DNA of 32,000 nt from Geotalea uraniireducens Rf4 (GTDB taxonomy: Bacteria > Desulfobacterota > Desulfuromonadia > Geobacterales > Geobacteraceae). The notes beneath the pieces are model-generated. The model saw nothing but the letters and a program-made list of their open reading frames with translations. It was not told where the DNA came from and did no database searches. The number at the start of each line of letters is the position of its first letter. The first letter of the stretch is position 1. The DNA lies in the NCBI RefSeq assembly GCF_000016745.1, contig NC_009483.1, positions 900,001 to 932,000 on the forward strand, given 5' to 3'. This document shows positions 9,436-32,000 of this stretch, one piece after another. The position numbers and the translations under genes are program-made.

Positions 9436-9450
9436 GAATGCAATCTTAAC

Positions 9451-9532
9451 GTAAGGGCGCAATGCTTGCGCCCCTGCTGCAATAACCGGCATTGTTGCTA
9501 TTGCCATCAGGGCGCATGCAATGCGCCCTTAC
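9451..9532. repeat. Inverted pair of related palindromic hairpins (REP/BIME-like) between the dockerin-protein gene and the lipoprotein gene
   Basis: Hairpin 1 is GGGCGCA (9455-9461) / TGCGCCC (9467-9473). Hairpin 2 is AGGGCGCAT (9509-9517) / ATGCGCCCT (9521-9529). Flanks gtaagggcgca... (9451) and ...tgcgcccttac (9532) are reverse complements, so the two copies are in inverted orientation. Confidence 0.6.
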
Positions 9533-9555
9533 AAAACCATCCGGGAGAACAAACG

Positions 9556-10068
9556 ATGACAACAAATATCTCAAAATACCTGTTGCTGACCTTGACCCTG
9601 CTGACCCTCGCCGCCTGCGGCGGGGGAGGTGGGGGCGGCACAACAGACACGACCAAAACCACCGCCACTGTCAAAATAGCCCTGAGCGGCACGTTGCCGG
9701 CCGGCACCGCTATTGCCGGGGCCGCCTTAACCTTGACGCTGCCGGACAACGTTATTCCGGAACTGGTCAATGGAGCCGTGGCCGGCAGCGTTGTCACGCC
9801 ATCCGGTGTCTTTGCCGGAGGGGCGCTGGTTCCTGTGGTTTACAAGGAGGCCACTGCATCCTCCCCCGGCATGGTGGTGATTGCCCTTGCCAGCGCAGCC
9901 ACAACCGGTGTAGCCGAAACAGGTGAGGTAGCCACCGTCACCTTGCGCCTGACCAACAGCGCCGCACCGACCGCCGGCAGTTTTACGCTGGATCAGAAGG
10001 TGACCGATACCTCGGGCAAAGTCGTCAGCGGTTTGAGTGCGATCGTGAGTGGGGTGACGCTGCAGTAA
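9556..10068 (+). CDS. Lipoprotein (170 aa) with cohesin-like beta-sandwich domain
   Basis: RBS GGGAGA at 9543-9548. Signal peptide with lipobox LTLAAC followed by a Gly run. The remainder (VKIALSG.LPAG...LTLTLP....GEVATVTLRLTNSAAPTAGSFTL...GVTLQ) has the spacing and character of a cohesin module. The ORF-track start at 9466 lies inside the REP element and is rejected. Confidence 0.75.
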   Translation: MTTNISKYLLLTLTLLTLAACGGGGGGGTTDTTKTTATVKIALSGTLPAGTAIAGAALTLTLPDNVIPELVNGAVAGSVVTPSGVFAGGALVPVVYKEATASSPGMVVIALASAATTGVAETGEVATVTLRLTNSAAPTAGSFTLDQKVTDTSGKVVSGLSAIVSGVTLQ

Positions 10069-13902: not shown

Positions 13903-16900
13903 ATGAAAAAAAATCAGAAGAGAGTTTTCAGAAGATTGCAAAAGTTTTCGACCGGACAGCCCGCATATTTGCGGCTGCTGGTCTGGCCGATCATTGCGCT
14001 GACGCTTGTTTTCGGACAGGCGTTTATTGTATCACCGGCAATGGCCTTGGGGGGCAGTTATACCCCGGCCGTCAGCGCCGGCAACGTCAGCGCGGGCAGC
14101 GCCACCCTGACGTTGAAATTTACCGGGGATTCCTCCACGCTGACCGGGAATTTCACCCTTCTGGCGGGGAACGGCGCCAGTTGCGGCAGCAGCGCTCAAG
14201 TCATTGCAGGAACGGACAGCGCGGACAAAGCAATTGGCGTCGCCGGCAGCGTCGTACTTCGCTCAGGCTCCGTGCCGAATATGAGCGTCGCTACCGATTA
14301 CCCGTACACGGTGGGCAACCTCAGCGCCGCCACCTCCTATACCGCCTGTTTCACCTCCAGCCCAGGTTCTACGCCTGCTTCGGCCAGTTTTAGCACAACA
14401 GCCGCCACCCCCCAGGTAGGCGCCTTCATGGGCACGGCCAGCGACACCGCTTTTACAGGCATTGCTCTCCCTTCCGTCATGGCCATTGCCCCGGACGGCG
14501 CCCCTTACGTGGCCTTCGGGTATTTGACTTCGGGTGGTGTAGCACACAAAGCCACGGTGAAGCGCTTTAATAGCCAGACCAAAGCGTGGGAACCGGTCGG
14601 CGCCGCGGAATTCACCGTCGATGCGGCCAATAGTATCTCTCTGGCCTTTGCCCCGAACGGCGCCGCTTACCTGGCGTCTTCCGACGATAACACCACCAAC
14701 GGAACCAAGGTGATGAGCTTTAATGGCGCGACCAGTACGTGGGAAGCGGTCGGCGCTACGCCCGTCTCTGCCGGCAGCACCGGTTTTAACTCACTGGCCT
14801 TTGCCCCGGATGGCACCCCTTACGTGGCGCTCGTGGAATTTGCAAACGGCGGCCAAGCCAGTGGCTATGTCAAGGTAAAGCGCCTTAACGGTTCGACCTG
14901 GGAAGACGTCGGCGCCCTGCCCGCCGACTACGCCACATACAGCTCCCTGGCCTTTACCCCCAACGGCGGCCTTTACCTGGCGTACGTGAAGACTGCACAC
15001 TCAGGCGCGGACTGGGGCACCGCCACGGTGAAGTTCCTTGCGAACCCGGCGGATCCCGGCGCTACCTGGGCAGATATCAACAATGATCCATCCAGTTCCT
15101 ATATCTACGGCGTTAGCGGCCTCTCCCTGGCTATCGCCCCGAACGGCACACCCCATGTAGCTTTTATGGATGCCGACACACGCTATCCCATAGTGATGCG
15201 CTACCTGAACGGCGCCTGGATCAAGGTCTGGAACGGCAGCGCCAATATAACAGCCGGCAGGGCGGCCGGCATGGGCAACCTGGTCATTGCCCCGGACGGC
15301 ACGCCATATCTGGCGACCGCGGATGAAAACACAGATCGCTCACAAACGCCGCTATTCGGCTTTAACGGCACGGACTGGATTCCTTTCGGCAGCAACTCTA
15401 CCATCTATAATTGGGGCCAGACTGCTCAACCGACCGTGGCCATTGCTCCGAACGGCATACCGTATGTGTTGATTAATGATATTAACACTTTCAACCCCAT
15501 GATAATGAAGGCGAACACCGACCCCATTCTCGCCGGCGTCACTACCGGCGCGGCGAGCAACATCACCACCACCGGCGCCACCGTGGCCGGGACGGTAAAC
15601 ACCACCGACGGCGGAACCACCACGGTTAGCTTTGAATATGGCGCTGACACCAGGTACGGCAGTCACACTACCCCCGTTACCGGCCAGTCGGCCGGCGCGT
15701 CAGCTTCCGCCTCCATCACGGGGCTGTTCTGCGGCGCCACCTACCACTACCGGATCAAGGGAACAAGCAGCCGCGGCCCCGCCTACGGCAGCGACAATAC
15801 CTTTGCCACCTTGGACTGCCAGCCAGGCCCGGCGCTGACCACTCCGAGCGCCAGCAATATAACCGTGGGGGGGGGCGCCACCCTGCAGTTTCAGGCAAGC
15901 GCCGTCAGCACCGGGTATTACACCGTGATGGCGGGGGCCGATGTCACCTGCGGCACCGCCTTGCAAATCAGGGGAGGCAAGGACAGCAACGGCAACACCG
16001 CAGCCATTTCCGGCTCCATGGCGCTGCAAGCCAACACTCCCGCCAGCATACAGTTAAACAGCCTGACCAACGCCGCCTACACCGTCTGCTTTACCGCCGG
16101 CACCAGCAGCACGCTGGCAACCGTTGCCTCGTTCAACCTGCTGACCCGCCCGGATTTCAGCTGGCAGCCGCTCGGTACAGCCGGAGCTTTCAGCGGCGAT
16201 GCGTCATACATCAAACTCGCCATTTCACCAACGGACAACACCCCCTACGTGGTGTTTCAGAATAATGTTCCCGGTGACCCGGATAATGGCAAGGCTGTGG
16301 TGAAGAGCTACAACGGCACATCCTGGAGCACGGTCGGTTCCGGCGGTTTCTCCACCGGAGACGCCTCTTTCATCTCTATGGCCATTGACAGTAACGGTAA
16401 ACCTTATGTGGCGTATCAGGACAGTGGCAACAGCGGCAAAGCCACGGTGAAGTCTTACAATAATGGCACTTGGGGCGAAATCGGGGTTACCGGCGGATTT
16501 TCCTCAGGTTTGGCCCAATACATCTCCATGACCTTTGCGCCGATGGGCAACGTTCCCTATGTGGCATACGCCGACGGCAGCGGCAGCAATAATGGCTCAA
16601 TCACGATGCAAGAGAACACAACCGGCAGTTGGAGCGTAGATGGGACCGGGACCGCCATCTCCGCCGCGAACGCCTCCAGCATCTCCCTGGCCTCTGATTC
16701 ATATTCTCAACAATATGTCGCGTATATTGACGGAAGCGACCTTAACAATAAACAGGTGAAGGTCCGGTACTATTATAATGATCCTGCTTTTCCTCTTTGG
16801 GATAACTACCCGGCGGTCTCAAGCAATTCACTCACCGATCTCTCCAATCTCTCCCTGGCGGTTGCGTCAGACTGCACACTCTACGTGGCATATCTGGATG

Positions 16901-21145: not shown

Positions 21146-21601
21146 ATGAGCAATTTGGGATGCGGCTGCCCCGGCAGCATGGCACGGGTAATCGAGAGAG
21201 AAGAGACAACAACTGCAACCACCTGCAGGGCGCAGTCAGAACTTCGGCAGTGGCCGGTGCAGCTCCACCTGGTCCCGCCGACCGCCCCGTATTTCAACCA
21301 GAGCGATATACTGATCTCGGCAGACTGCGTTGCCTTCGCCCTCGGGAGCTTCCACGGCGATCTGCTGCGAGGGAAGGCGCTGGCCATAGCCTGCCCGAAA
21401 CTGGACGATAGCGGCGTGTATGTGGAAAAACTGGCGACGATCTTCCGGGAAAACGAGGTGAAAAGCATAACCGTGGCGATCATGGAAGTCCCCTGCTGCC
21501 GCGGCCTGGATGTGATGGTCAGGCAGTCGCTCCAGCAGTCCGGCAAGGAGATCCCGCTTGAAACCGTCATCGTCGGGGTGAACGGCGAAAGGAGGAATTG
21601 A
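21146..21601 (+). CDS. Conserved Cys-rich protein, probable Fe-S/redox protein (function unknown)
   Basis: RBS AAGGAG at 21133-21138. Motifs GCGCPGS, LRQWPVQLHLVPP.APYF, ADCVAFA, ACPKLDD and MEVPCCRGL. From memory this family is often annotated as an iron-sulfur cluster-binding protein. Confidence 0.7.
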   Translation: MSNLGCGCPGSMARVIEREETTTATTCRAQSELRQWPVQLHLVPPTAPYFNQSDILISADCVAFALGSFHGDLLRGKALAIACPKLDDSGVYVEKLATIFRENEVKSITVAIMEVPCCRGLDVMVRQSLQQSGKEIPLETVIVGVNGERRN

Positions 21602-21603
21602 CC

Positions 21604-22161
21604 ATGAAAAGGGACATCACACAGACGCTCGTCCGCGAGCACCGGCTGATCCTCCGCATGCTGGCCGTTTTAGAGCGTAACGCTCTGGCCACCGGCGCAG
21701 GAACATACTCCAACTACCGCTTTTACCTGGACGGGGTCGATTTCATCAGAAATTATGCCGACCGCTTCCACCATGCCAAGGAAGAGGACGTGCTCTTCGA
21801 GGCGCTGGTGAAAAACGGCATGCCCAGGGAAAACAGCCCGGTGGCTGCCATGCTGATGGAACATGAGCAGGGGAGGGCCTACGTGAAGGCCATGGAACTG
21901 GCGGCGTTGCTTGCCCTGTCGGGTGAGCCGGGTCAGGATGGGACTATTGCGGAAAACGCCCTCGCTTACGTGGAGCTTTTGAAAGAGCATATCGCCAAGG
22001 AGGACGACATCCTCTATCCCTTGGCCGAGCGGCTCATACCCGATGCGGCTCGCGATGCCGTCATTGCCGGTTACGAGGCTGCCGAGGCCCGATCAACGGA
22101 CGGTTTTGAGAGAAGGTATGATAAGATTGTCGCTGATTATGAGCGTGAGGGGGCCTGTTAG
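21604..22161 (+). CDS. Hemerythrin HHE cation-binding domain protein
   Basis: RBS GGAGG at 21591-95, 8 nt before ATG 21604. Motifs [24 protein letters not shown] and [14 protein letters not shown]. The previous stop at 21599-21601 lies 2 nt before the ATG, so translational coupling is likely. Confidence 0.85.
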
Positions 22162-22577
22162 TGTAGTTCCTCTCCTGTCGTGGTCATCACCAGCTTCCCA
22201 TGTTTTACCCCTTTTACCCCGATCAGTTCATCGGCAATCTGCTTCACCTCACGGGCTTTGCCCCGCACAACCAGGACCTCCAGGCAGTTGTGGGCATCAA
22301 GGTGCACGTGAAGGGCAGAGATGATCTGGTCATGGTGAGTATGCTGATGCTCGGTCAGCTTGTCGGACAGGTCCCGCACGTGATGATTATAGACAAGGGT
22401 GACGGTGCCGACGGTCTCCTCTTCTCCCGCTTCCCATTTCAGTTCCACCAGCGATGCGCGGATCAGGTCCCGAATCGCCTCGGAGCGGTTCATGTACCCC
22501 TTCTGATCGATCAGCTTGTCGAAGCTCTCCAAAAGTGTCTCGTCGATTGATATGCCGAATCTAATGGTCTCTCCCAT
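22158..22577 (-). CDS. nikR: Nickel-responsive transcriptional regulator NikR
   Basis: N-terminal ribbon-helix-helix ([19 protein letters not shown]...[13 protein letters not shown]). C-terminal metal-binding domain with His/Cys ligand pattern (VYNHH...EHQHTHHD...HVHLD..NCLEV). RBS GAGGAG 6 nt before the ATG. Confidence 0.9.
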
Positions 22578-22596: not shown

Positions 22597-22628
22597 GAAT
22601 CATCAATTTGTCAAATATTAGATGATTC
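22597..22628. promoter_or_regulatory. Perfect 8-bp inverted repeat with 16-bp spacer just upstream of nikR (candidate NikR operator)
   Basis: GAATCATC (22597-22604), N16, GATGATTC (22621-22628), located 20-51 nt upstream of the nikR ATG. A TAATAT -10-like hexamer (minus strand) lies in the spacer. Confidence 0.45.
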
Positions 22629-22839: not shown

Positions 22840-23559
22840 CTACCGCAGTTGGAACTGTACCGGCATGACGATCTCTGCAGCCGCGGGTGGTCTCGGGAAG
22901 GGTGCAACGCTTTTGACCGTTTCCATGGCACTGTTATCCAGCGCAGGATAGCCACTGCTCTCTTTGACTTGAATAGAGCGGACGCTGCCGTCTTCAGCGA
23001 CTATGAACACAAGCACTACTCTGCCGCTCCACCCCATCCGTCTGGCTACCAGAGGATAAGAGAGCCGTTTTACGATCAGGTCGCGGATATAAGTAAAATG
23101 CTCATTGAGATATCTTTGCTGGGCCTTTTCAGGAGTCATCCCGCCACCACTTGTCTGTGCTGTCCGTGGCGCAGCAGCGACAACTGGTATCCCCTGGTTT
23201 GTGGAAACCTGCCTGGACACATTTTCCGTTACAGTTCTGCTAGCCAGAGGTGCAGATGGTGTCGGTGCTGCATTCTGGCTGACAACCGGGGTCGGCTGAG
23301 ACTCCGGTTGTGTCTGCGCCTGCTTTCGTGGTGTCGGCTGCGCTGCGACAGCCGGCAGCTTTTGGGGGGCAATCGGCTGTTTGGGAGCGGCAACCGGCGG
23401 CGTTGATTTTCCCCGGAGCTGCTCAGGACGCGGAGATGAGCCGAGGGTAAAATCAATGCTGACCGGCGGGGTGTGCTTGACTCTGTTTACAGTAAATTCC
23501 AGCATCAGTGCCAGCATCCCCAGATGCACGGCGAGAGAGGCCATACACCATTTAGCCAT
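22840..23559 (-). CDS. tonB: Energy transducer TonB
   Basis: N-terminal TM with SxxxH motif (MAKWCMASLAVHLGMLALML), a Pro/Gln/Ala-rich spacer, and a TonB C-terminal domain (YPLVARRMGWSGRVVLVFIVAEDGSV..IQVKESSGYPALDNSAMETVK...PFP). AAGGAG lies upstream. An alternative start is at 23595. The ORF-track start at 23850 overlaps the upstream gene. Confidence 0.85.
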   Translation of the reverse strand: MAKWCMASLAVHLGMLALMLEFTVNRVKHTPPVSIDFTLGSSPRPEQLRGKSTPPVAAPKQPIAPQKLPAVAAQPTPRKQAQTQPESQPTPVVSQNAAPTPSAPLASRTVTENVSRQVSTNQGIPVVAAAPRTAQTSGGGMTPEKAQQRYLNEHFTYIRDLIVKRLSYPLVARRMGWSGRVVLVFIVAEDGSVRSIQVKESSGYPALDNSAMETVKSVAPFPRPPAAAEIVMPVQFQLR

Positions 23560-23611
23560 ATGTGCATCACTCCTTGCTGTCTGTAGACGGGGCATACAAT
23601 AGGTTCTCCGA

Positions 23612-26600
23612 TCATCTGTTTTTCCGGAAACCTGTTGCCACCAGCCCCAGCACGACAATAAATCCCAGTATGAACAACCAGGGGATCGGGGCCGATGCCG
23701 CGCCGGCCGCCGGTTTACCGCTTTCCTGCATTTCAAACCCTTCAACCTGTTTGCCCTGCGTCGCTTTGCCGCTCGTCCCTTGGGTTGCGGCCTGCTGCGC
23801 AGACTTCTGCGCCGCCTGCTGCCGTCCCTGTTTGCCGTTCTTCCCGGCATCGGGCTGTTTCATGTTCTGTAGCGCTTGCTCGAAACCGGAAACCAGCGAT
23901 TTCAGCCCCGGCACCGATAACAGGGTTGTGGTTGTGAACTTCGTCAACTGCGGGTTGTTGCAGGTATGGTCGCAACAGGCAAGACCGACCTCTTGAACCG
24001 ATTTGGCGTATTCCTCGGCCAGTTTCTCGACTATTTTCTGATCCGGCTTCCAGTACTGCTTGCGCACTGTCTCCAGCATACGTGCGACGACAGACTGGTA
24101 GGCCCACATATTCTTGGCCTGGCGGAACATGTCCTTGATTCCCAGACCGTTTCTGTCAAGCACATATGTTTCATGCATCTCCTGCCACTTGGCGCTGTCC
24201 ACCGTCTCCGGCACCGTCACCTGCCATCCCCAAAGATGTTCCGTCACCTTGTCGATGAAGCGCGCTCCGGCGTACCCATCCTTCATCATGGCCTTGATCC
24301 ACTCCGGATTGAGATAGCGGGAACGCATCTCCTGCCCCATCACTTTCTCCAATGTTTCCTGTTTTGCCTTGTTCGGATTGGTCATGTCGGTGACGTAAAC
24401 CTCGGGAGTCGCGCCGTTCACGGCGCGGACCGCCATGGCGGTGCCCCCCAGATACTGGTAGAAGTCGTCCGTATCCAGTATGCCGATGGTGTTGGTGGAA
24501 CGGCTGTGGATTGCAATCTTGCTGCCGGTGAGGGCGTTTTTGAACAGCGCCGTGCCGATCTCCTGCCCCTTATGTTCCACCTTTTCGCCCCAGAAACCTT
24601 GGCCAAAGGGATGACCCATGCGCATGAAATAGACGTCTACCACCTGTTTTTCGTTATCCCACTTGTCGGAAGCAACGATCACCTTGTCTAAGCCGGTGCC
24701 GTACGTGCCGGGTGGTTCGGTAAATATGCGCACCGATGCCAGCCGACCGGCCTTTTCCTCCGCCATACCTTTATCGAGTAATATCTGCTTGGTACGTCTG
24801 GTATTGGATCTGATCAGGTTATCTTCTTCATCCTGATCACGTGCAACCGTCACCGCGCTGTCCAAGAGCGCCATCAGGTTGGCGAACAGGTCGCGGTACA
24901 GGCCGGAAGGAACGATGGTGACGTCAATCCGGCCACGCCCCAGCTCTTGCCTCGGAATCGGCTCGACCCCCTTGACCCGTCCCCGCTCGTCCCACTGGGG
25001 GCGTACCCCCATCAGATACATGATCTGTGACTCCATCACCCCTTCATGACGGATGGTTTCAGTAGCCCAGATATTGAAGGTCAGTTTGTCGGGGTATGCT
25101 TCATGGCGCTTTTTGTACCCCTCGATCAGCTCCTGGGCCAGTTTTGTTCCGGTCGCATAGGTGCCCGGAGAGGGGACACGGGTCGGATCAAACGCATAGA
25201 AGTTCTTGCCGGTGGGGAGTGAGTCCGGATTGCGAATCGGATCGTTGCCGGTGCCGGACGGGATGTATTTCCCCGCCAGGGCGGCCACAAAAGAATCGAG
25301 TTCACGGGGGCCGCTGGCGGCGATTGCCGCTTCCAGGGCGGCGATACGCTTCTGACGTTCTTCAGATTTCAGACTTTTCTCAATGGCGATAATCGCCTCG
25401 GCGGTGCTTTTCAGATACTTCCCATCCGGCGATTTGCCGAAAGTATGCAGCCCAAAGGGGGTAATCTTCTCGCCGATCTCCCTGATGTAGTCGTCCAGTT
25501 CCTCCACCTGTTCCATAGTGGTGATGGCCGACAGTTTCAGGTCCGTCAGGATGCCCCCCTTGCGGGCCAGCCGGTTGATCTCCTCCAGCTTGCTGCCCGC
25601 CAGTTGGGGTGACTTCTCTTTGGCATCGTTGTAATCGCTGATCAGCGCCGCCAGCTCCTTCAATTCGCGGTTGATACCGGCCTTGTCAAAGGGGGGAGTC
25701 ATATAATCAATCACCACCGCCATGCCGCGCCGCTTGGCCTGGAGCCCTTCGCCCACATCATCCACGATGTAGGGGTAGATATTGGGAAGGTCCTGAATCA
25801 GCAGTTCCGGCGGATCTTCCTGTGTGAAGCCGACCTCTTTGCCGGTGAGCCATTCCTGGGTGCCATGGGTGCCGATATGGGCCACGGCGTCGGCCTTGAA
25901 GCCGCGTTTCAGCCAGAGATGAAAGGCGATATACTGGTGATGGGGCGGAGTGTGGATATCATGAAAGAGCTTTTTGACATCCTGTTCCAATCCGCGCGAC
26001 GGCTCCGGTGTGAACAGAATGTTGCCGTATTTGACCCCCGGCAGCACGATAAACTTTTTCCCGTTCGGGTCGCGCCAGGTCATGATGGCGGCGTCATCCG
26101 GCTCGCCCCAGCTTTTCACCACATCCTTGCGGAAGTTTTTCGGCAGCTCCATGAACCAGCTTTTGTAAACCGCCATCGGGATCAACACCGCCCGGCCGCT
26201 GCGGGCCAACCTGTCAATCTCCGCCGGAGCCCAGTTGCCGATATTGCGCCCAAAGGCATGCACCTCTTCAAACAGCTTCTCTTTGGAGATCTCTTCGTTT
26301 CCTGTGGTATAGCCTTCGCGTTTCAACCTGCTGAATATCTCAAAGAGGCTTTCCGGCAGCACATTCAGGTAGGCAGCACCGATATTCTGTTTCCCCGGCG
26401 GGTAGTTGTAGTAGATGATGCCGATATTCTTGTCGCTGTTCGGTTTCTGTTGCAGCGTCAGCCAGCGTTTAACCCGTTCAGTCAGCCGTTCGATCCGCTC
26501 CGGGATAGGGCGGGTCTCCATGTATTCCAGTCCGGTGGCGGGGTCAACGCCCCGCTCTTTCGAGGAGACCACCGTCGGCTGAATGATACCGGCCATTTCC

Positions 26601-27583
26601 GGCAGTCCGATGGTTGAGCTGCGCTCGAAGATGTCCAGCCCGACCGGGGATTTTTCCCACTCTTCCCGTGACTGGGAGTGCAGGGTAACGGCATCGATCA
26701 CCGGCACACCAAGGCGGGTCAGAATCGGCACCGCCCGCTGTGGTGTGATGCCGACTTTGAGCGATACGCCGATCACCGCCTGCACTCTGCTTTTTCCGGT
26801 TTCGTCAAAAAAATACTTTTCCACCGACAGTTCCGAGGGGTAGCCGTAGACCGGCAGGACATTCATTCCCTTGCGTTCCAGCGAAGCGATCAGGCTGTCG
26901 AGCAGCGCGGTGTCGTCGTTATCCACCAGGTTCCGGTAAAAAGGGATGCCGATCCAGGGGCCGGGGCGGTGGCGATACAGCTTCAGGTAGTCGGCAAATG
27001 TTTCAACGGTACGCTTGCCATCTTTGAGATATAAGCCGAAAGCGGGAACTCCCTGAGGTTCTTGATACTCAACCGCGATGCCGCACTCCCGTTTCAGCAG
27101 CGAGAGGATCATGTTAACAGCATTTTCCAACCCTCCCTCTTGTTGATAACGGCTAACGATGGAGTCGTTTTTCAGGCCGAGGGCGCTGTCGTCCTTGCTG
27201 AACATCCCACCCACGGCATACACATTCATCCCGGCCTGCTGCATGGTGAGGATGGATGGCTTCAGCAATTCGAGAAAACGTCGATCCATGATATGGACAA
27301 TGCCGAAACCTTTTGATCCGGCGGGATAGTGTGCCTTTGCTCCGTTTTCGCGCTCAAGCCCCGCCTTGGTAACCACCTCAAACGTTACCTGGTGTGCTAG
27401 TTCCGGATGTTTCAACGTGATGGCGTGAACCGCCTGTACCGCCAGACGGGAGTTGTAATCGCCAAGCATCAGCCTAACCGTGAGCGGCGTTTCCGCAGCC
27501 AGGGCGGCAAGAGGAAGCGCCAGTAGCAGAACTATTGCCGAAGCAGCTTTCAGGATCGTGGCAAACAGGCTATTCCGGCACAT
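23612..27583 (-). CDS. CobN/Mg-chelatase large-subunit family protein with N-terminal signal peptide and C-terminal membrane anchor (HmuS-like)
   Basis: 1323 aa. Contains the CobN-type motif AHIGTHGTQEWLTGKEVG and is family-like along its length. N-terminus MCRNSLFATILKAASAIVLLLALPLAALA-AE looks like a Sec signal. C-terminus has a Q/K/A-rich linker followed by IPWLFILGFIVVLGLVATGFRKNR. It overlaps the upstream gene by 14 nt. Confidence 0.85.
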   Translation of the reverse strand: MCRNSLFATILKAASAIVLLLALPLAALAAETPLTVRLMLGDYNSRLAVQAVHAITLKHPELAHQVTFEVVTKAGLERENGAKAHYPAGSKGFGIVHIMDRRFLELLKPSILTMQQAGMNVYAVGGMFSKDDSALGLKNDSIVSRYQQEGGLENAVNMILSLLKRECGIAVEYQEPQGVPAFGLYLKDGKRTVETFADYLKLYRHRPGPWIGIPFYRNLVDNDDTALLDSLIASLERKGMNVLPVYGYPSELSVEKYFFDETGKSRVQAVIGVSLKVGITPQRAVPILTRLGVPVIDAVTLHSQSREEWEKSPVGLDIFERSSTIGLPEMAGIIQPTVVSSKERGVDPATGLEYMETRPIPERIERLTERVKRWLTLQQKPNSDKNIGIIYYNYPPGKQNIGAAYLNVLPESLFEIFSRLKREGYTTGNEEISKEKLFEEVHAFGRNIGNWAPAEIDRLARSGRAVLIPMAVYKSWFMELPKNFRKDVVKSWGEPDDAAIMTWRDPNGKKFIVLPGVKYGNILFTPEPSRGLEQDVKKLFHDIHTPPHHQYIAFHLWLKRGFKADAVAHIGTHGTQEWLTGKEVGFTQEDPPELLIQDLPNIYPYIVDDVGEGLQAKRRGMAVVIDYMTPPFDKAGINRELKELAALISDYNDAKEKSPQLAGSKLEEINRLARKGGILTDLKLSAITTMEQVEELDDYIREIGEKITPFGLHTFGKSPDGKYLKSTAEAIIAIEKSLKSEERQKRIAALEAAIAASGPRELDSFVAALAGKYIPSGTGNDPIRNPDSLPTGKNFYAFDPTRVPSPGTYATGTKLAQELIEGYKKRHEAYPDKLTFNIWATETIRHEGVMESQIMYLMGVRPQWDERGRVKGVEPIPRQELGRGRIDVTIVPSGLYRDLFANLMALLDSAVTVARDQDEEDNLIRSNTRRTKQILLDKGMAEEKAGRLASVRIFTEPPGTYGTGLDKVIVASDKWDNEKQVVDVYFMRMGHPFGQGFWGEKVEHKGQEIGTALFKNALTGSKIAIHSRSTNTIGILDTDDFYQYLGGTAMAVRAVNGATPEVYVTDMTNPNKAKQETLEKVMGQEMRSRYLNPEWIKAMMKDGYAGARFIDKVTEHLWGWQVTVPETVDSAKWQEMHETYVLDRNGLGIKDMFRQAKNMWAYQSVVARMLETVRKQYWKPDQKIVEKLAEEYAKSVQEVGLACCDHTCNNPQLTKFTTTTLLSVPGLKSLVSGFEQALQNMKQPDAGKNGKQGRQQAAQKSAQQAATQGTSGKATQGKQVEGFEMQESGKPAAGAASAPIPWLFILGFIVVLGLVATGFRKNR

Positions 27584-27908
27584 AGATCACCTTCCCGTCT
27601 TTCAGTTGATACGCAGTGCCCAGCCGTTCCCCTTCGCCGGAAAGCCGCTTGTCCGCCACCTTGCGCACCTTGATCTCTTTGCCCTTCTTGGTGATGACCT
27701 CGATTCCACCGTTGGCGGTCTTTTTGGTGATGGTTACCTCCGATTTCGGGTCCATCAGGTCGAGCATGTTGTAGGCCATGAACAGGGCGATCATCATGCT
27801 GACGATAAAGACCACGCTGACGTCGAACAGGTTGGCCACTCCGGCGATTGGATCTTCCAGCGGCTCATCATATTTTTCAAAGCGGTTGCGCCGTTTAAGA
27901 AATCTCAT
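27570..27908 (-). CDS. Small single-pass membrane protein, DUF2149-like (ExbD-like topology)
   Basis: 112 aa: a short charged N-terminus, TM LFDVSVVFIVSMMIALFMAY, then a ~60-aa soluble beta-rich tail. It overlaps both neighbours by 14 nt. The family name is from memory. Confidence 0.7.
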   Translation of the reverse strand: MRFLKRRNRFEKYDEPLEDPIAGVANLFDVSVVFIVSMMIALFMAYNMLDLMDPKSEVTITKKTANGGIEVITKKGKEIKVRKVADKRLSGEGERLGTAYQLKDGKVIYVPE

Positions 27909-28491
27909 CGCCTTCTTCCTCCCTGGCCGACAGTGGGCGACTGCTGGTATATCTCCTGAGCATCAACTCGGTCTGGTATTCCATTTCTCGCATGTCGGCC
28001 CGCACCCATTTTTCCTTCACCAGCGACATCAGGTAGGCTACGACGCTACAGGCCAGACCGACGACAACGGTGGTAAAGGCGGTCACCATACTTCCGGCCA
28101 TCTTGGGCATATCCCCCTGCGCCAGCGAAGAGAGGGATATCCCCATCGGAATCAGGGTTCCCATCAAACCAAGAGCTGGACCGACCCGGATCACGAAGCG
28201 GATCTTGTCCAGGGATTTGACCAGGGCCAGCTCGGCCGTTTGCAGGAGACGCTCCATGGCGATATCCAGATTGGACTTCTCAGGTGCGTCCGCCAGTGCT
28301 GCGGTCAAGCGTGCCCGGTAGCGTTCCAGCGGGGTGGATACCCCCTGTCGCCGTTCCAGCCACTCCCGCAGAAATCCGCCAATGAAGATGGTGACCCATC
28401 CAACCAAAAGCACCAGCCCGGCAACCACCGGAAACAGCAGAACCGACGAAATCAGATACAGGACGGTTTCAAGACCAGCCAATATGTTCAT
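27895..28491 (-). CDS. MotA/TolQ/ExbB proton-channel family protein
   Basis: 198 aa with three TM segments and signature VGPALGLMGTLIPMG...AFTTVVVGLACSVVAY. ATGA start/stop overlap with the upstream gene. Confidence 0.85.
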   Translation of the reverse strand: MNILAGLETVLYLISSVLLFPVVAGLVLLVGWVTIFIGGFLREWLERRQGVSTPLERYRARLTAALADAPEKSNLDIAMERLLQTAELALVKSLDKIRFVIRVGPALGLMGTLIPMGISLSSLAQGDMPKMAGSMVTAFTTVVVGLACSVVAYLMSLVKEKWVRADMREMEYQTELMLRRYTSSRPLSAREEEGDEIS

Positions 28492-29183
28492 TTGTTACCT
28501 CCTTTGTGTGTAAAAAAGCCGACCAACAACGCTGTCAGCAGCAGCCCCAACAGAAACATGCCGCCTGTGCCGTTTCCGGCAACAGGCGGCAGCTCCTTGA
28601 GAAATGAGCTGTACATCCCTTTGGCCTGCTCAACTTTGGTCGGCAGAAAGAGGGAGGCGATGAAATAAAGTCCGATCGTGATCATGACCAGCCCCAGGGA
28701 GGGGAGTGAACGGCGATTAGATCCGGTTCTGGAGACAATCATCACCACCAGCGTCATGCTGCTGAAAACCCCGCCCAGCACCAAGCCAACCGCCCAGGGG
28801 AGCAGCGGGAGGCTGTTGAGGGCGCTCCAGGTCGAGAAGGTCATGGCGGTCAGGCAGACCGGGCAGGGGATCAACAGTGCCAAGGGAGAATCGTGAGGGG
28901 ATGTTCCCCCCTGTCTCTTGATGATAAAAAGCCCCCAGAGGATCATGCCCATGGCCATAACCATGTGCAGCCAGCGCCCTCCTTTCAGCAGAGGTTCAAG
29001 CAGCGGCAACAGGCGCTCGGCCAGGAGGGCGATCAGCTCAAAGAGCGCCAGATAGAGGCCGATGGTGAACGCTACCCCTTTTCGGGAAACCTGCCCGTAT
29101 CCCAAGCCAGCGCCGACCTTGACGGCAAAGATTCCCAGACTGAAGAGGGTGCCGCCGACCCAGAGCGCTATATTCAGATCCAT
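28488..29183 (-). CDS. Polytopic (6-7 TM) membrane protein, DUF2162-like predicted transporter
   Basis: 231 aa and highly hydrophobic, with LLIPCPVCLTAM (CPxC within a TM) and a His (SPHDSP) loop. The family name is recalled from memory of CobN/MotA/DUF2149 neighbourhoods and was not verified. Confidence 0.65.
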   Translation of the reverse strand: MDLNIALWVGGTLFSLGIFAVKVGAGLGYGQVSRKGVAFTIGLYLALFELIALLAERLLPLLEPLLKGGRWLHMVMAMGMILWGLFIIKRQGGTSPHDSPLALLIPCPVCLTAMTFSTWSALNSLPLLPWAVGLVLGGVFSSMTLVVMIVSRTGSNRRSLPSLGLVMITIGLYFIASLFLPTKVEQAKGMYSSFLKELPPVAGNGTGGMFLLGLLLTALLVGFFTHKGGNK

Positions 29184-29196
29184 ATAAACTCCCGTA

Positions 29197-31425
29197 TCAG
29201 AATTTGAAACTCAACTCGCCGTATGCTGAGCGTCCCGGCGCCAGATAGTATGAGTAGTAGTGTTCATCAAGCAGATTGGAGACGGATAGTGAAGCAGTAG
29301 CCCATGAAGTGATCCTGTAGCGCAGTTTCAGGTCAACGGTGAAATAGGGGTCGTAACTCCCCTGAACGCCGTTGACCGTATCGATGTTGGTGTCGTTGCC
29401 ATAGCGCTTGCCCACATAGCGACCGGTGGCCAACGCTCCGAAGTCGCCGTATTCCAAATCGGCGCCGACATTGAACATATGTTCCGGTACATCGGTCATC
29501 CGTTTGCCGGTAGAGGCGGGGGCTGCGCTGTTTTCCTTGATGGTGGCATCGGAATAGGTGTAGTTGGCAAACAGTCTGAGCTGCTTGCCGAATTTCTGTT
29601 CCGCCTCCAGCTCCACCCCTTTGCTTTCCGCCTTGCCGGCGTTGACCTTGTCCTTCCAGGTTGCCGTGGTTGATGTACTGTAGATCAGGTCGCTGATGTA
29701 GTTTTCAAAATAGGTGGCCGAAACCCTGGCTCCCTCCCAGAGACCCTGGCTGACACCGGCATCCCAAGAGATGGTTGTTTCCGGCTTCAGATCAGGATTT
29801 CCGGCATAGGTTATTCCGCTGGAAGTCGTCCAGGTGCGGTAGAGATCATATGCGGTGGGAGCGCGGAACGCCTTGCCGCCGGAGAGTTTGAGGGTGGTCT
29901 GGTCGAACGGTTTATACACGATGGCCCCTTTGGGGCTAAAGGAAGAGGCGCTGCGGGAATCATAATTTTTGGGATAGCCACTGCTTCCAACCTGATTGGC
30001 GTAGCCGTCAAAGGTTTCCCACCAGTCCTGCCGGAAGCCGAAGAATAGGGTCAGTTTGTCCAGCAGCATGATCTCGTCCTGGGCGAACAGGGCGAAGGTC
30101 CGGTCGGTTCCCTTGGATTTGTAGGTCATGGCCGCTGTAGAATTTTCATCCTGCCAGTTGGTGAGGGTATGCTCCTTGGAATGGGCCCAACCGCTACGGA
30201 AGGCGCCGCCGAAGGTCAGAAGGTGGCGATCCAGCAGCGGCAGGGATGCCTGAAGATCGGCGTTGATCGCCCCGGCCGGGGTATCGGACAGTTTGCCCGG
30301 GCCACCGCTTCGGGTGGCGCTGTTGGGTGGAGCTGCCGAGGTGGGGGTGGAGCCCCAACTGCTGGCCTGATACAGATAGCCGAGGTTCAGTTTAAGTTTG
30401 ACCGGAGAAAATGCTGTTTCGGCGGCCAGGCCGTACAGATACTGGTCGCTGCCACCGTTTGCTCCCAGGAAGGAGGCTTCCCGTACCGTGCCGTAGGTCC
30501 AGACCTCGGCACCGGAGCTGTTGCGCAGATAGGTTGCCGGGTCATCATAGAAATATTCACCGCTTGACTTCAGGAAGGTGAACCTGACTCTGGTGTCCGG
30601 AGAAAACTCGTATTCTGTCTTGACAGTAAGGTTGTCCTGCCAGGTGCCGTTTTTACCCTTGTCGCCGATCCGGTAGCGGGCTGCTCCGCTGTAGTCGGTA
30701 GTGTTACTGTAGCCGGTTATTCCGGCGGTCGGCTGGCTGCTCTGGACGTTGAAGTCGCTGCGGTAGCCGTTCGTGCCTACATAGTCGTTATGCAGATAGA
30801 CCTTAAATTTCCCCAGAAACTTGTCGCCGTAGGAAACCGCCACGCGGCGGGAGTTCTCCATACCGTTGCCGCTGTCTAGGGCAGAACCATAGCCACCGGT
30901 AAGGGTAAATTCCCGTTTTTCCGGCATCTGGGTAATCAGATTAACCACACCTCCCATGGCATAACCGCCGTAGAGGCTGGAGGCCGGTCCCTTGACCACC
31001 TCGATCTGTTCGAGACTGCCCGGTGCTATCCCCACAGAGAATACCGATCCTGCATAGGGGCTGTTGAGGGTGATGTCGTCCAGCATCACCAGTGTGCGGG
31101 ACTGCCCCGGAATACCCCGCAGGGTAATGGCCGACATCCGGTCCATCATCCCTTTGCCGCGGGTCGTAATCACACCGGGTATGATGTTGATCGCCTCATC
31201 CACCGTGGTAATATTCCGCTTATCTATCTCCTCCTTTGTTACAACGGAGACACTGCCGGGGGCGGACTCCAGATCTTGCTCGGTCCTGGTGGCTGTGACC
31301 ACGATCTGCTCCAGCCTGGTTTCGCTTCCTGCCGCGTTGCCTGGCGGTTCCGCCCCGATGGCGGCGCTCCCCAGCAGGCAGCCCGACAAAATCCCTGCCA
31401 ACGTTACGACTTTTTTTCTCTTCAT
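29197..31425 (-). CDS. TonB-dependent outer-membrane receptor (riboswitch-controlled; BtuB/HmuR-like role)
   Basis: Signal peptide MKRKKVVTLAGILSGCLLGSAAIGA. TonB box LEQIVVTATR. Plug motifs (PGVITTRGKG, IRG) and a beta-barrel ending ...YGELSFKF. RBS GGGAGA at 31436-31431. Confidence 0.9.
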   Translation of the reverse strand: MKRKKVVTLAGILSGCLLGSAAIGAEPPGNAAGSETRLEQIVVTATRTEQDLESAPGSVSVVTKEEIDKRNITTVDEAINIIPGVITTRGKGMMDRMSAITLRGIPGQSRTLVMLDDITLNSPYAGSVFSVGIAPGSLEQIEVVKGPASSLYGGYAMGGVVNLITQMPEKREFTLTGGYGSALDSGNGMENSRRVAVSYGDKFLGKFKVYLHNDYVGTNGYRSDFNVQSSQPTAGITGYSNTTDYSGAARYRIGDKGKNGTWQDNLTVKTEYEFSPDTRVRFTFLKSSGEYFYDDPATYLRNSSGAEVWTYGTVREASFLGANGGSDQYLYGLAAETAFSPVKLKLNLGYLYQASSWGSTPTSAAPPNSATRSGGPGKLSDTPAGAINADLQASLPLLDRHLLTFGGAFRSGWAHSKEHTLTNWQDENSTAAMTYKSKGTDRTFALFAQDEIMLLDKLTLFFGFRQDWWETFDGYANQVGSSGYPKNYDSRSASSFSPKGAIVYKPFDQTTLKLSGGKAFRAPTAYDLYRTWTTSSGITYAGNPDLKPETTISWDAGVSQGLWEGARVSATYFENYISDLIYSTSTTATWKDKVNAGKAESKGVELEAEQKFGKQLRLFANYTYSDATIKENSAAPASTGKRMTDVPEHMFNVGADLEYGDFGALATGRYVGKRYGNDTNIDTVNGVQGSYDPYFTVDLKLRYRITSWATASLSVSNLLDEHYYSYYLAPGRSAYGELSFKF

Positions 31426-31449
31426 GATTTTCTCCCGCGAGTATTTCGG

Positions 31450-31600
31450 CTGGAGCGGTATTCCGGCTCAGGGCTTCCTACTTGCCCGCCTTCCCAGGAT
31501 TTTTCCCAGTGGCTGTTTCGCCTTGCGGCGATGGGCTTTCGTTCCCATTACGGCTGCGGGGCAGCGGGGGAGTTGCACCCCTCTTCCTCGACTCCATCCG
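31450..31600 (-). promoter_or_regulatory. Cobalamin riboswitch, proximal copy (B), abutting the receptor RBS
   Basis: The minus-strand RNA contains AGGAAGAGGGGUGCAACUCCCC, CCCGCAGCCGUAAUGGG, GCCACUGGGAAAAAUCCUGGGAAGGCG (GCCACUG from 31513) and the B12-box variant GAGCCGGAAUACCGCUCC (31469-31452). The RBS lies 16 nt further on. Confidence 0.8.
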
Positions 31601-31614
31601 TTTGAAAAAGGCAC

Positions 31615-31650
31615 AAAAAAAGTCCGCATATGCCGAAGCAATATGCGGAC
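31615..31650 (-). terminator. Intrinsic terminator between the two riboswitches (expression platform of copy A)
   Basis: The minus strand reads GUCCGCAUAUUGC-UUCG-GCAUAUGCGGAC: a 12-bp stem with one bulge and a UUCG tetraloop, followed by U7 (31621-31615). Confidence 0.85.
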
Positions 31651-31717
31651 TTTTCGTATTCAAAGTCTGATAATGGTTTCACTCTCCCTTTACCACGGGG
31701 AATTGTTGAGTGCTAAG

Positions 31718-31888
31718 ATCATGGCAGGTCTTCTGGCTCGCGATTCATCCTCCGGGCGCCTTCCCGGTCTTTCGACCAGTGACATAATGCCCTTCGTCCT
31801 CGCTTACAGCGGCGGGTCCGCGGGGGAATGGCTCGGTTTGAGCGGCACCCCTCTTCCCTATCAAGCCCTTGCGGGCACCGTGATCCGA
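31718..31888 (-). promoter_or_regulatory. Cobalamin riboswitch, distal copy (A)
   Basis: The minus-strand RNA contains GGUGCCCGCAAGGGCUUGAUAGGGAAGAGGGGUGCC, CCCGCCGCUGUAAGCG, GUCACUGGUCGAAAGACCGGGAAGGCG and the B12 box GAGCCAGAAGACCUGCC (31739-31723). Confidence 0.9.
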
Positions 31889-31928
31889 TATTCAGTTTTT
31901 GTTGATATTTACTAAATATTGCATGATC

Positions 31929-31958: not shown

Positions 31959-32000
31959 TCAGCTATTGTTTAAACAGATTAACAACAGTTGCGCGACCCG

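Follow-up and report, generated by a model that had tools for sequence, protein, structure and literature searches.

The closest characterised system to the locus described here is hmuYRSTUV of the Bacteroidota. Its CobN-like component, HmuS from B. thetaiotaomicron, was shown experimentally in 2025 to be a periplasmic, ATP-independent haem dechelatase (PMC12583661). HmuS is the only characterised relative of the CobN-like protein discussed below, and dechelatase activity has been shown for HmuS alone. The purified recombinant enzyme dechelates haem without MotA/DUF2149 partners, but for 1-2 turnovers only. In the same study (PMC12583661), the Figure 1 legend gives HmuU/HmuV the role of energiser, and the authors of the Hmu work propose that HmuTUV carries haem across the inner membrane (PMC13227078).

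The cluster analysed here is not new, as it corresponds to the 'BtuS' type of CobN homologue seen earlier by comparative genomics (Rodionov 2003, as cited by Rocha 2019, PMC6460266). A cobN-exbB-exbD-tonB cluster was also described in 2012 for plasmid pSZ77 of Geobacter lovleyi and for Gura_0774 of G. uraniireducens (PMC3403914). Those papers assign no mechanism, and where they deal with the MotA-like/DUF2149 genes at all, they count them towards transport across the outer membrane. Our locus belongs to this system: the T. lovleyi plasmid shares its genes and its tandem riboswitches, and the CobN-like proteins of both loci are 75% identical. The DUF2149 protein of the window matches one from Geotalea uraniireducens with 100% identity. 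Unlike pSZ77, however, it lacks a canonical exbB-exbD and a second BtuB-sized receptor.

The stretch of DNA that was analysed (the window) comprises 32,000 nucleotides of Geotalea uraniireducens Rf4 (contig NC_009483.1, positions 900,001 to 932,000). An ORF check of the window located all six genes of the operon on the minus strand, and the content and order that a sequence-only reading had given were borne out by Pfam profile matches for all six. In the direction of transcription, two tandem cobalamin riboswitches are followed by the genes for a TonB-dependent receptor, DUF2162, a MotA/ExbB-family protein, DUF2149, the CobN-like protein and TonB, and then by nikR:

31706..31897, minus strand: cobalamin riboswitch aptamer 1, operon leader (Rfam RF00174, 109.9 bits, E 6e-27, full model length)
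31615..31650, minus strand: intrinsic terminator 3' of aptamer 1 (GTCCGCATAT / ATATGCGGAC stem followed by T7, read from the sequence)
31437..31611, minus strand: cobalamin riboswitch aptamer 2 (Rfam RF00174, 68.5 bits, E 4e-15)
29197..31425, minus strand: TonB-dependent outer-membrane receptor, 742 aa (Pfam Plug 86 bits, TonB_dep_Rec barrel 205 bits)
28488..29183, minus strand: DUF2162 polytopic membrane protein, 231 aa (Pfam PF09930, 210 bits)
27895..28491, minus strand: MotA/TolQ/ExbB-family proton-channel protein, 198 aa (Pfam PF01618, 46.5 bits with a cut-off of 22.9, E 4e-12)
27570..27908, minus strand: DUF2149 protein, 112 aa (Pfam PF09919, 111 bits)
23612..27583, minus strand: CobN/ChlH-family protein of the BtuS/HmuS type, 1323 aa (Pfam CobN-Mg_chel PF02514, 1040 bits)
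22840..23595, minus strand: TonB, 251 aa (Pfam TonB_C 62 bits; TIGR01352 76 bits)
22158..22577, minus strand: NikR nickel-responsive repressor (NCBIfam NF003381, 240 bits against a cut-off of 105)

The gene overlaps described in that reading are real for DUF2162/MotA (4 nt), MotA/DUF2149 (14 nt) and DUF2149/CobN (14 nt). Between tonB and the CobN-like gene there is most likely no overlap: according to the gene call on an identical public contig, tonB most likely starts at 23595, leaving a 16-nt gap. No canonical ExbB/ExbD is encoded in the window operon, although a canonical TonB is present; this TonB holds an N-terminal anchor with an SxxxH motif (SLAVH), as read from the sequence.

Cobalamin control, which had also been proposed, proved stronger than claimed, as both tandem aptamers exceed the RF00174 gathering score of 31.5. 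The operon is predicted to be controlled by cobalamin and repressed by vitamin B12. The terminator lies after aptamer 1, with which it is predicted to form a transcriptional OFF switch; a consensus terminator scan missed it because its loop exceeds the limit of the scan. Aptamer 2 ends 11 nt before the receptor ATG and abuts a GGGAGA ribosome-binding site, and therefore it probably controls translation. In a survey of related loci (designated by L numbers), the tandem arrangement is kept in L003, L004, L021 and L033, and in L002, L003, L004, L006, L011, L016, L018, L021, L025, L033 and L039 the cluster is immediately preceded by a riboswitch. A riboswitch also lies 5' of the stand-alone MotA–DUF2149–CobN-like trio of L042, from a beta-proteobacterium, where the CobN-like protein is only 30% identical. 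In L010, an incomplete aptamer, located where the contig ends, lies 5' of an upstream gene for a second, weaker homologue of the receptor.

The CobN-like protein is made with a Sec signal peptide (…ALA|AE), is anchored in the membrane through a C-terminal transmembrane segment (PIPWLFILGFIVVLGLVATGFRKNR), and is predicted to be a periplasmic catalytic subunit. Both features are present in all MotA/DUF2149-linked CobN-like proteins save two, whose starts were called too far upstream, whereas the classical CobN of Haloferax has neither. With this topology, the protein would work outside the cytoplasm, where ATP is absent. The sequence-only reading had drawn attention to the lack of an AAA+ partner. 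The absence stands, since no AAA+/VWA genes (ChlI/ChlD, CobS/CobT) were found among the larger window ORFs scanned, nor ChlI/ChlD- or CobS/CobT-type partners among those genes of related loci that bear an annotation or a label; it is no puzzle, because no such partner is expected for a periplasmic protein.

With respect to the class I ATP-dependent chelatases (CobNST, ChlHID/BchHID), the large catalytic subunit is homologous and its active-site residues are conserved. These include the catalytic His573 of GTHG and the Glu of VGEG (DDVGEG), and the chelatase-site His and Glu are strictly conserved across all clades; the class-I active site is intact. However, the window protein is exported, membrane-anchored, devoid of AAA+/VWA partners and always paired with MotA/DUF2149. 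It also falls below every NCBIfam equivalog cut-off for CobN/BchH (best 916 bits against 1619; TIGR02257, 630 against 822; TIGR02025, 681 against 829). Its identity is ~30% to a classical CobN and ~30% to HmuS.

The likeness to hmuYRSTUV noted in the earlier reading is confirmed by the solved structures, among which HmuS (9d26) is the best match, with 502 bits, followed by CobN (9uk9), with 447 bits. In both systems a TonB-dependent receptor, an anchored periplasmic CobN-like protein, a MotA/ExbB-family protein and DUF2149 share one operon without an AAA+ partner, and the site-2 catalytic residues His538 (GTHG) and Glu577 (VGEG), which in HmuS are essential or conserved, have counterparts in the window protein. 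The differences are nevertheless considerable. The window has no HmuY hemophore, its gene order (DUF2162-MotA-DUF2149-CobN) differs, and its third membrane protein is DUF2162 with a PCPVC motif, to which HmuT is unrelated. As for HmuS itself, the haem site-1 ligand His254 is replaced by Val, the region of Met79 did not align, and the Met-rich insertion between HmuS residues 697 and 891 is absent. The Asp1208-His1209 dyad is Asp-Asp in the window, as in CobN, within an LD(x)DD motif. Finally, the Hmu locus is under iron control, in contrast to the cobalamin riboswitches of the window.

The MotA-like protein has three predicted transmembrane segments and shares 29% identity over 69 aligned residues with the canonical ExbB encoded in the T. 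lovleyi cluster. In the loci surveyed, its gene is always immediately upstream of that for DUF2149. This second protein consists of a single N-terminal transmembrane helix and a small beta-rich domain, predicted to be periplasmic; its AlphaFold model (pLDDT 64.5) comprises a helix at 20-52 and 5 strands. An Asp residue in the transmembrane segment (Asp29, in the motif NLFD) is found in 117 of 126 family representatives and is invariant in alignment A3. As in ExbB-ExbD-TonB and TolQ-TolR-TolA, a MotA/ExbB-family channel precedes a small protein whose one transmembrane span bears a conserved Asp, and a third, single-pass anchored periplasmic protein is the likely recipient of the work. DUF2149 is proposed to be an ExbD/TolR/MotB-like plug subunit of the stator. 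It shows no detectable homology to ExbD/TolR beyond the transmembrane Asp, and an all-beta fold is predicted for its periplasmic part. By hhalign only the transmembrane segment aligns with ExbD (E 0.063); in Pfam it matches the DUF2149 family alone, with no match to ExbD/TolR (PF02472); and neither a PDB sequence match nor a Foldseek match at E<=0.001 was obtained. A further difference from these energisers is that the proposed partner has its anchor at the C-terminus instead of the N-terminus, and the MotA-like/DUF2149 pair exists in archaea without TonB.

The receptor was considered as a BtuB equivalog and rejected (TonB-B12, TIGR01779, 189 bits against 600; PRK10641, 136 against 836). It also lies below the NCBIfam TonB-hemin cut-off (216 against 317), its PDB matches are unspecific (Cir, PhuR, BtuB, CntO), and its orthologues accompany the cluster in most relatives. 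DUF2162, whose AlphaFold model is poor, holds the PCPVC motif in a transmembrane segment, invariant in 18 loci and in ANME-1, and is a candidate inner-membrane metal permease; alternatively, it could be a thiol-based electron conduit.

The gene-neighbourhood survey, which the sequence-only reading had suggested, revealed that DUF2149 (and MotA where readable) adjoins a CobN-like gene in all 26 genome loci with readable flanks. Among plasmid records, the 10 with DUF2149 all carry a CobN-like gene nearby, within the same cluster in all five inspected, while ~274 other CobN-bearing records have no DUF2149. MotA–DUF2149–CobN-like is thus an invariant core. The trio occurs with neither receptor nor TonB nearby on a Comamonadaceae plasmid (L042). 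The same holds for an ANME-1 archaeal locus with the order DUF2162-MotA-DUF2149-CobN; this bears out the archaeal link noted earlier, as does the listing of DUF2149 in methanogens, linked to TolQ (PMC9425974). In other archaea the pair likewise stands beside a CobN-like gene, with no TonB or receptor in the locus. In turn, four relatives (L002, L007, L017 and L033) have genes for canonical ExbB/ExbD within the cluster, and in T. lovleyi one operon holds the pair together with canonical ExbB (PF01618, 101 bits), ExbD (PF02472, 91 bits) and TonB. The commonest neighbours are the CbiMNQO ion transporters (L004, L008, L010, L014, L021, L033, L039 and the archaeal L044).

We tentatively read the operon as a B12-repressed system for the acquisition of cobalt or corrinoids, in which a periplasmic dechelatase-type enzyme works with a dedicated proton-driven partner. 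The observed basis consists of the gene content, the riboswitch control, the periplasmic topology, the intact catalytic residues and the invariant linkage of MotA–DUF2149–CobN-like, including where TonB is absent; we infer the substrate, which way the reaction runs, what DUF2162 does and that the enzyme is coupled to a stator. When cobalamin is scarce, both riboswitches would open, and the receptor would bring a cobalt chelate, most likely corrinoids, into the periplasm. The anchored enzyme would bind this chelate and, like HmuS acting on haem, most likely catalyse the reverse of the chelatase reaction, releasing Co(II), which could cross the inner membrane via DUF2162 (through its PCPVC motif) and/or a CbiMNQO encoded elsewhere to feed de novo B12 synthesis. 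The MotA-like/DUF2149 pair would be an ExbB/ExbD-like, proton-driven unit dedicated to the anchored enzyme, for example in conformational cycling or product release, and not solely an energiser of TonB. The CbiMNQO neighbours suggest a role in cobalt or metal supply, as does a Runella cluster embedded in hypABF/hypCDE, [NiFe]-hydrogenase genes, where a permease with an HX4DH nickel/cobalt motif occupies the position of DUF2162. A corrinoid substrate is suggested by a signal-peptide-bearing CbiZ within the operon in four lineages.

Against this reading, cobalt-corrin bonds are very stable, and we know of no enzyme that takes cobalt out of a corrin. In addition, the D-D dyad resembles that of biosynthetic CobN and not the D-H of HmuS, and sequence does not tell which way the reaction runs. 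Corrinoid salvage accounts no less well than cobalt mining for the secreted CbiZ, for the BtuB-sized second receptor that follows TonB in L003, L004 and L033, and for the BtuF-like genes of L036. The operon could instead be an importer whose receptor takes up cobamides or cobinamide, which the secreted CbiZ, where present, trims to cobyric acid. The CobN-like protein would then bind and hand over tetrapyrroles in the periplasm without metal removal, and DUF2162 with the MotA-like/DUF2149 pair would form a proton-driven inner-membrane corrinoid transporter replacing BtuFCD. Riboswitch control is typical of B12 importers, Pfam labels DUF2162 a 'predicted transporter', and inner-membrane transport has been proposed for HmuTUV. 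We consider this alternative unlikely, if deserving of attention: a mere carrier would not need the strictly conserved chelatase His and Glu, the commonest neighbours transport ions, Runella has an ion permease instead of DUF2162, many clusters lack DUF2162 (L027, L028, L030, L032, L036, L042), and L036, like L044 in part, encodes importers of the BtuF/FecCD type next to its cluster. A cytoplasmic cobaltochelatase inserting cobalt into hydrogenobyrinic acid a,c-diamide, with AAA+ subunits of the ChlI/ChlD or CobS/CobT type elsewhere, would suit the public annotation ('cobaltochelatase subunit CobN'), the strong CobN-Mg_chel match and the D-D dyad. It is hardly credible given the signal peptide and anchor, the missed equivalog cut-offs, the low identity to a classical CobN, the anaerobic-pathway genes and CbiMNQO in Geobacteraceae clusters and the lack of CobS/CobT in the G. 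lovleyi genome (PMC3403914).

The part of the sequence-only reading that made the pair a stator which uses the proton-motive force to act on the CobN-like enzyme is plausible and has gained comparative support, but is not demonstrated. It is favoured by the linkage in 26 of 26 loci, the trios without receptor or TonB, the canonical ExbB/ExbD encoded alongside, the conserved Asp and the few turnovers of HmuS; the lack of significant ExbD/TolR likeness in DUF2149 and the activity of HmuS without partners in vitro speak against it. Since canonical ExbB/ExbD are missing from the window operon, which does encode a TonB with an SxxxH anchor, the pair could here simply energise TonB, being only a divergent ExbB/ExbD that powers TonB and the receptor while the CobN-like enzyme works independently. 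The MotA_ExbB match, the transmembrane Asp and the role assigned to HmuU/HmuV would agree with that. It is nevertheless improbable, as the pair stands beside CobN-like genes in ANME-1 and other archaea and in the Comamonadaceae trio, with no TonB or receptor in the locus or nearby, and shares the T. lovleyi operon with canonical ExbB, ExbD and TonB (canonical ExbB/ExbD also in L002, L007 and L017).

There is only a slight chance that the operon serves nickel acquisition within a NikR regulon, with the riboswitches as a second layer of control. This would explain why nikR follows directly in the window and in L009 and adjoins the A. brasilense cluster, as well as the hyp/[NiFe]-hydrogenase setting in Runella. 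However, the window clade is just 37% identical to the Runella protein, the cobalamin riboswitches upstream of the cluster are conserved across phyla, and in the window a NikR-type palindrome was found at the nikR promoter only, with none near the operon leader. The membership of nikR in the system is uncertain; it adjoins CobN-like clusters in L009 and L036. In the window it lies 262 nt downstream of the operon and probably has its own promoter, and the palindrome upstream of it is unique within the window.

The operon on the minus strand from 31425 to 22840 encodes the six proteins that had been described from the sequence alone, and searches against Pfam identified the family of each of them.

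Minus strand, TonB-dependent receptor, 742 aa (Pfam Plug and barrel)
Minus strand, DUF2162 membrane protein, 231 aa (Pfam, 210 bits)
Minus strand, MotA/TolQ/ExbB-family protein, 198 aa (Pfam, 46.5 bits, over the cut-off)
Minus strand, DUF2149 protein, 112 aa (Pfam, 111 bits)
Minus strand, CobN/Mg-chelatase-family protein, 1323 aa (Pfam, 1040 bits)
Minus strand, start 23595, TonB, 251 aa (Pfam)

The four middle genes overlap as had been claimed, once by 4 nt and twice by 14 nt, and TonB most likely starts at 23595, 16 nt past the stop codon of the CobN-like gene. Neither an AAA+ nor a VWA protein was found among the large ORFs scanned in the window, in agreement with the earlier statement that no AAA+ partner is encoded there. 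The closest loci in the genome collection belong to Geobacteraceae MAGs (~90% identity) and to Trichlorobacter (75%). For DUF2149 of the window, a protein of Geotalea uraniireducens is an exact match.

Two tandem cobalamin riboswitch aptamers (110 and 68.5 bits; window 31437-31897) lie 5' of the operon. A clear intrinsic terminator (31650-31615) comes after the first aptamer and the second extends to the ribosome-binding site, and thus B12 shuts expression at two levels. The tandem layout is kept in the Geobacteraceae relatives L003, L004, L021, and L033. Eleven related loci, spread over several phyla, likewise have a cobalamin riboswitch immediately 5' of the cluster, and the related locus L010 holds just a truncated aptamer, upstream of its second receptor. 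An imperfect inverted repeat, TTGTTAA-N6-TAAACAA (window 31960-31979), is found just 5' of the TTGACA box preceding the first riboswitch, 21 nt from the end of the window, and may represent a candidate regulator-binding site at the operon promoter.

A neighborhood survey of CobN homologues revealed that the linkage of the MotA-like, DUF2149, and CobN-like genes is invariant in the readable loci. DUF2149, together with the MotA-like gene where the sequence allows, adjoins the CobN-like gene in all 26 genome-collection loci with readable flanks, nearly always in the order MotA-DUF2149-CobN. Plasmids behave in the same manner: a CobN-like gene lies nearby in 10/10 of those with DUF2149 (in the same cluster in the five inspected), and ~274 other plasmid records with CobN contain no DUF2149. 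In the Ca. Loosdrechtia chromosome (L039), the MotA-like gene reads as two ORFs of 153 and 76 aa (9031-9707), owing to a frameshift or to an error in sequencing, and the rest of the cluster is intact.

The possibility that the MotA-like/DUF2149 pair is an ordinary ExbB/ExbD energizer, favored by the fact that the window operon includes a TonB without a canonical ExbB/ExbD of its own, has to be weighed against two sets of loci, and we consider it unlikely. On the one hand, the pair is kept where TonB is missing: a Comamonadaceae plasmid carries a lone MotA-DUF2149-CobN trio after a cobalamin riboswitch with neither receptor nor TonB nearby, and an ANME-1 archaeon encodes DUF2162 (with the motif PCPVC), MotA, DUF2149, and CobN between two CbiMNQ(O) sets. 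On the other hand, the pair coexists with the canonical proteins. A single cluster of T. lovleyi encodes a receptor, DUF2162, the MotA-like protein, DUF2149, and the CobN-like protein, and then canonical ExbB (PF01618, 101 bits), ExbD (PF02472, 91 bits), TonB, and a second receptor, and canonical ExbB/ExbD also occur with the clusters of L007, L017, and L002, the last of which shares 90% identity with the window. Judging from these gene contents, the pair appears not to depend on TonB, nor does it seem to be redundant with ExbB/ExbD. In addition, 41 methanogen genomes have been listed with DUF2149 "linked to TolQ" (PMC9425974); no paper linking MotA/TolQ/ExbB with CobN in archaea turned up in our literature search.

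DUF2149 resembles ExbD, TolR, and MotB in having a single transmembrane helix with a conserved Asp, which is present in 117 of the 126 representatives. No significant homology to ExbD was detected by profile, PDB, or fold comparison. A DUF2149 profile search of the PDB established no homology, and neither did hhalign against ExbD/TolR, for which the E. coli sequences used may be approximate. The AlphaFold model built from 71 sequences (pLDDT 64.5) exhibits a confident transmembrane helix and a weak beta domain, and Foldseek found no significant match to it in the PDB. According to a 2026 paper (PMC13227078), HmuV of the haem system is not homologous to any family described so far.

At its N-terminus the CobN-like protein carries a Sec signal peptide of the usual kind (…LALPLAALA|AE), and at its C-terminus a transmembrane helix with basic residues behind it. 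Both features are common to nearly all homologues linked to MotA/DUF2149, except that two starts were called too far upstream to judge, while classical Haloferax CobN has neither. The CobN of a Haloferax plasmid proved to be the classical biosynthetic protein and was kept only as an outgroup. According to the signal peptide and the C-terminal helix, the CobN-like protein is periplasmic. ATP is absent from this compartment, and this explains the missing AAA+ partner. None of the curated CobN/BchH equivalog cut-offs is reached by the window protein, which is not a biosynthetic cobaltochelatase.

Among solved structures, the CobN-like protein matches HmuS (9d26, 502 bits) better than CobN (447) and ChlH (407), being ~30% identical to HmuS and likewise to classical CobN. 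Its clade is separate and compact, with identities of 59% or more, and has members in Thermodesulfobacteriota, Nitrospirota, Planctomycetota, Desantisbacteria, and one Bacteroidota MAG. The catalytic GTHG His and VGEG Glu, which correspond to the essential His538 and to Glu577 of HmuS, are conserved, and this intact active site suggests that the protein is an enzyme. In contrast, the HmuS haem ligand His254 is replaced by Val, the Met-rich insertion is absent, and the Asp1208-His1209 dyad is Asp-Asp, as in classical CobN. The window protein is not HmuS in the strict sense.

What varies among the clusters is the third membrane protein, a position occupied by DUF2162, an HX4DH permease, the unrelated HmuT, or nothing, next to a constant MotA-DUF2149-CobN-like core. 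Bacteroides HmuT and the Runella permease were both tested as divergent DUF2162 proteins and rejected. A single-sequence AlphaFold model of DUF2162 was unusable (pLDDT 49), and matching the receptor to solved structures gave no clue to its substrate. In two archaeal loci (L043 4993-9369; L045 5598-9342), a NosD-like beta-helix protein stands for the CobN-like protein beside DUF2162-MotA-DUF2149, in gene contexts of CobW/ABC or FeoAB/DtxR, and the CxxC motif is absent from both DUF2162 copies. These NosD-like proteins match the CobN-like protein in signal peptide, C-terminal anchor, and basic tail, and so the predicted architecture of the partner of the pair is conserved. Should the stator proposal hold, this would point to a wider family of extracytoplasmic enzymes coupled to stators.

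The commonest neighbors of the cluster are CbiMNQO cobalt/nickel transporters. Moreover, CbiZ homologues (PF01955, adenosylcobinamide amidohydrolase family, E ~1e-52) with an N-terminal signal peptide are encoded inside the operon in four separate lineages, while none is found in the window.

L039 (Ca. Loosdrechtia chromosome), 7293-8180, CbiZ with signal peptide, PF01955
L016 (related locus), 2970-3812, CbiZ with signal peptide, PF01955
L005 (related locus), 7142-7999, CbiZ with signal peptide, PF01955
L021 (Geobacteraceae relative), 14066-15028, CbiZ with signal peptide, PF01955

The presence of these proteins would imply that corrinoid processing takes place in the periplasm, with cobamides or cobinamide being cleaved there. 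No published mention of a secreted CbiZ in such operons was found in the literature searched. All-against-all clustering of unlabelled same-strand neighbors yielded no conserved reductase or recurrent partner other than this protein.

In sister clades, the same module stands in a nickel-related setting. The Runella cluster (L035) is located between hypABF and hypCDE ([NiFe]-hydrogenase genes), with the HX4DH permease, bearing a nickel/cobalt motif, at the DUF2162 position. Three unrelated lineages have a nikR gene beside a CobN-like/MotA/DUF2149 cluster: the window (22158-22577, 262 nt downstream of the operon), a Nitrospinota MAG (L009 5396-5632), and Azospirillum brasilense p4 (L036 19078-19237). 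This recurrent nickel link is not explained by B12 riboswitches. A perfect palindrome, GAATCATC-N16-GATGATTC (window 22597-22628), is found 20 nt 5' of the nikR start codon as the sole copy in the window; its half-site spacing is that of the E. coli NikR operator, and nikR therefore probably has a separate promoter through which it regulates itself. A Fur-family gene is located upstream of the Woeseiaceae cluster L030.

The operon described in the sequence-only reading is real and was correctly reported, but it is a rediscovery. The BtuS type of CobN-like protein was recognized by comparative genomics by Rodionov et al. (2003), as cited by Rocha et al. (PMC6460266), and Wagner et al. (2012) reported the cluster on the G. 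lovleyi plasmid pSZ77, noted that the G. lovleyi genome lacks CobS/CobT, and pointed out Gura_0774 of G. uraniireducens, without committing to a function (PMC3403914). HmuS was characterized in 2025 as a membrane-bound, ATP-independent, NADH-dependent dechelatase (PMC12583661). The operon is best classed as an uncharacterized cobalt/B12 variant of a system whose one characterized relative is HmuS.

We read the system most economically as part of a family of machines that harvest metals, with Hmu as the iron version and the riboswitch-controlled operon as the cobalt version. The receptor would import a stable chelate, here probably corrinoids; the anchored periplasmic chelatase homologue would take the metal off; the freed ion would enter through a permease, DUF2162 (PCPVC motif) and/or CbiMNQO; and the MotA-like/DUF2149 pair would work for the enzyme. 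We hold this composite explanation tentatively, as somewhat short of an even chance. Recombinant HmuS by itself stops after 1-2 turnovers, which leaves room for an energizing partner. Four points count against the composite explanation: we know of no corrin dechelatase; the Asp-Asp dyad resembles the one in the biosynthetic enzyme; the secreted CbiZ fits corrinoid salvage with cobyric acid import equally well; and the TonB of the window operon comes without a canonical ExbB/ExbD. Corrinoid import is an alternative of rather low probability.

The earlier proposal that the pair powers the CobN-like enzyme by proton-motive force is supported in part by the comparative data, which speak for a pair that serves the anchored enzyme specifically, and not TonB; the coupling itself, like the substrate and the reaction direction, is what we infer. 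In its full form, which we regard as unlikely, the pair would be the proton-driven stator not of an outer-membrane transporter or flagellum but of an anchored extracytoplasmic metalloenzyme, acting through the C-terminal anchor in place of the AAA+ motor of cytoplasmic class-I chelatases, and allowing bacteria and archaea to strip cobalt (nickel or iron in sister clades) from chelates of very high stability, corrinoids among them. No earlier statement of a stator mechanism for a CobN-like enzyme was found in the literature searched. If cobalt is indeed removed from corrinoids, the enzyme would be the first corrin dechelatase found in biology and would reveal a route for anaerobes to recycle a scarce metal out of the community pool of B12 analogues, relevant to Geobacter/Dehalococcoides consortia and methane-cycling archaea. 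If the pair energizes the enzyme, the ExbBD/TolQR/MotAB principle would extend to catalysis beyond the cytoplasm, accounting for the HmuU/HmuV genes in the haem systems of medically relevant Bacteroides and Porphyromonas and for the stalling of purified HmuS. The B12-biosynthesis assignment of thousands of anaerobe genes labelled "cobaltochelatase subunit CobN" is probably wrong.

The remaining large ORFs scanned in the window code for a histidine kinase and for very large, presumably secreted proteins built of repeats.

61-1086, HisKA_3 histidine kinase
1363-4938, very large ORF, 1191 aa
5101-9435, very large ORF, 1444 aa
13636-19317, very large ORF, 1893 aa

The last three, with pentapeptide repeats and MBG, Big_2, and glucodextranase-B domains, are presumably secreted or surface proteins with no relation to the operon. 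A hemerythrin-domain gene (21598-22161, plus strand) is convergent with nikR, overlapping its 3' end by 4 nt, and is adjoined by an AF_0155-family gene on an identical public contig; the Azospirillum cluster also has a hemerythrin gene nearby (L036 2226-2771).
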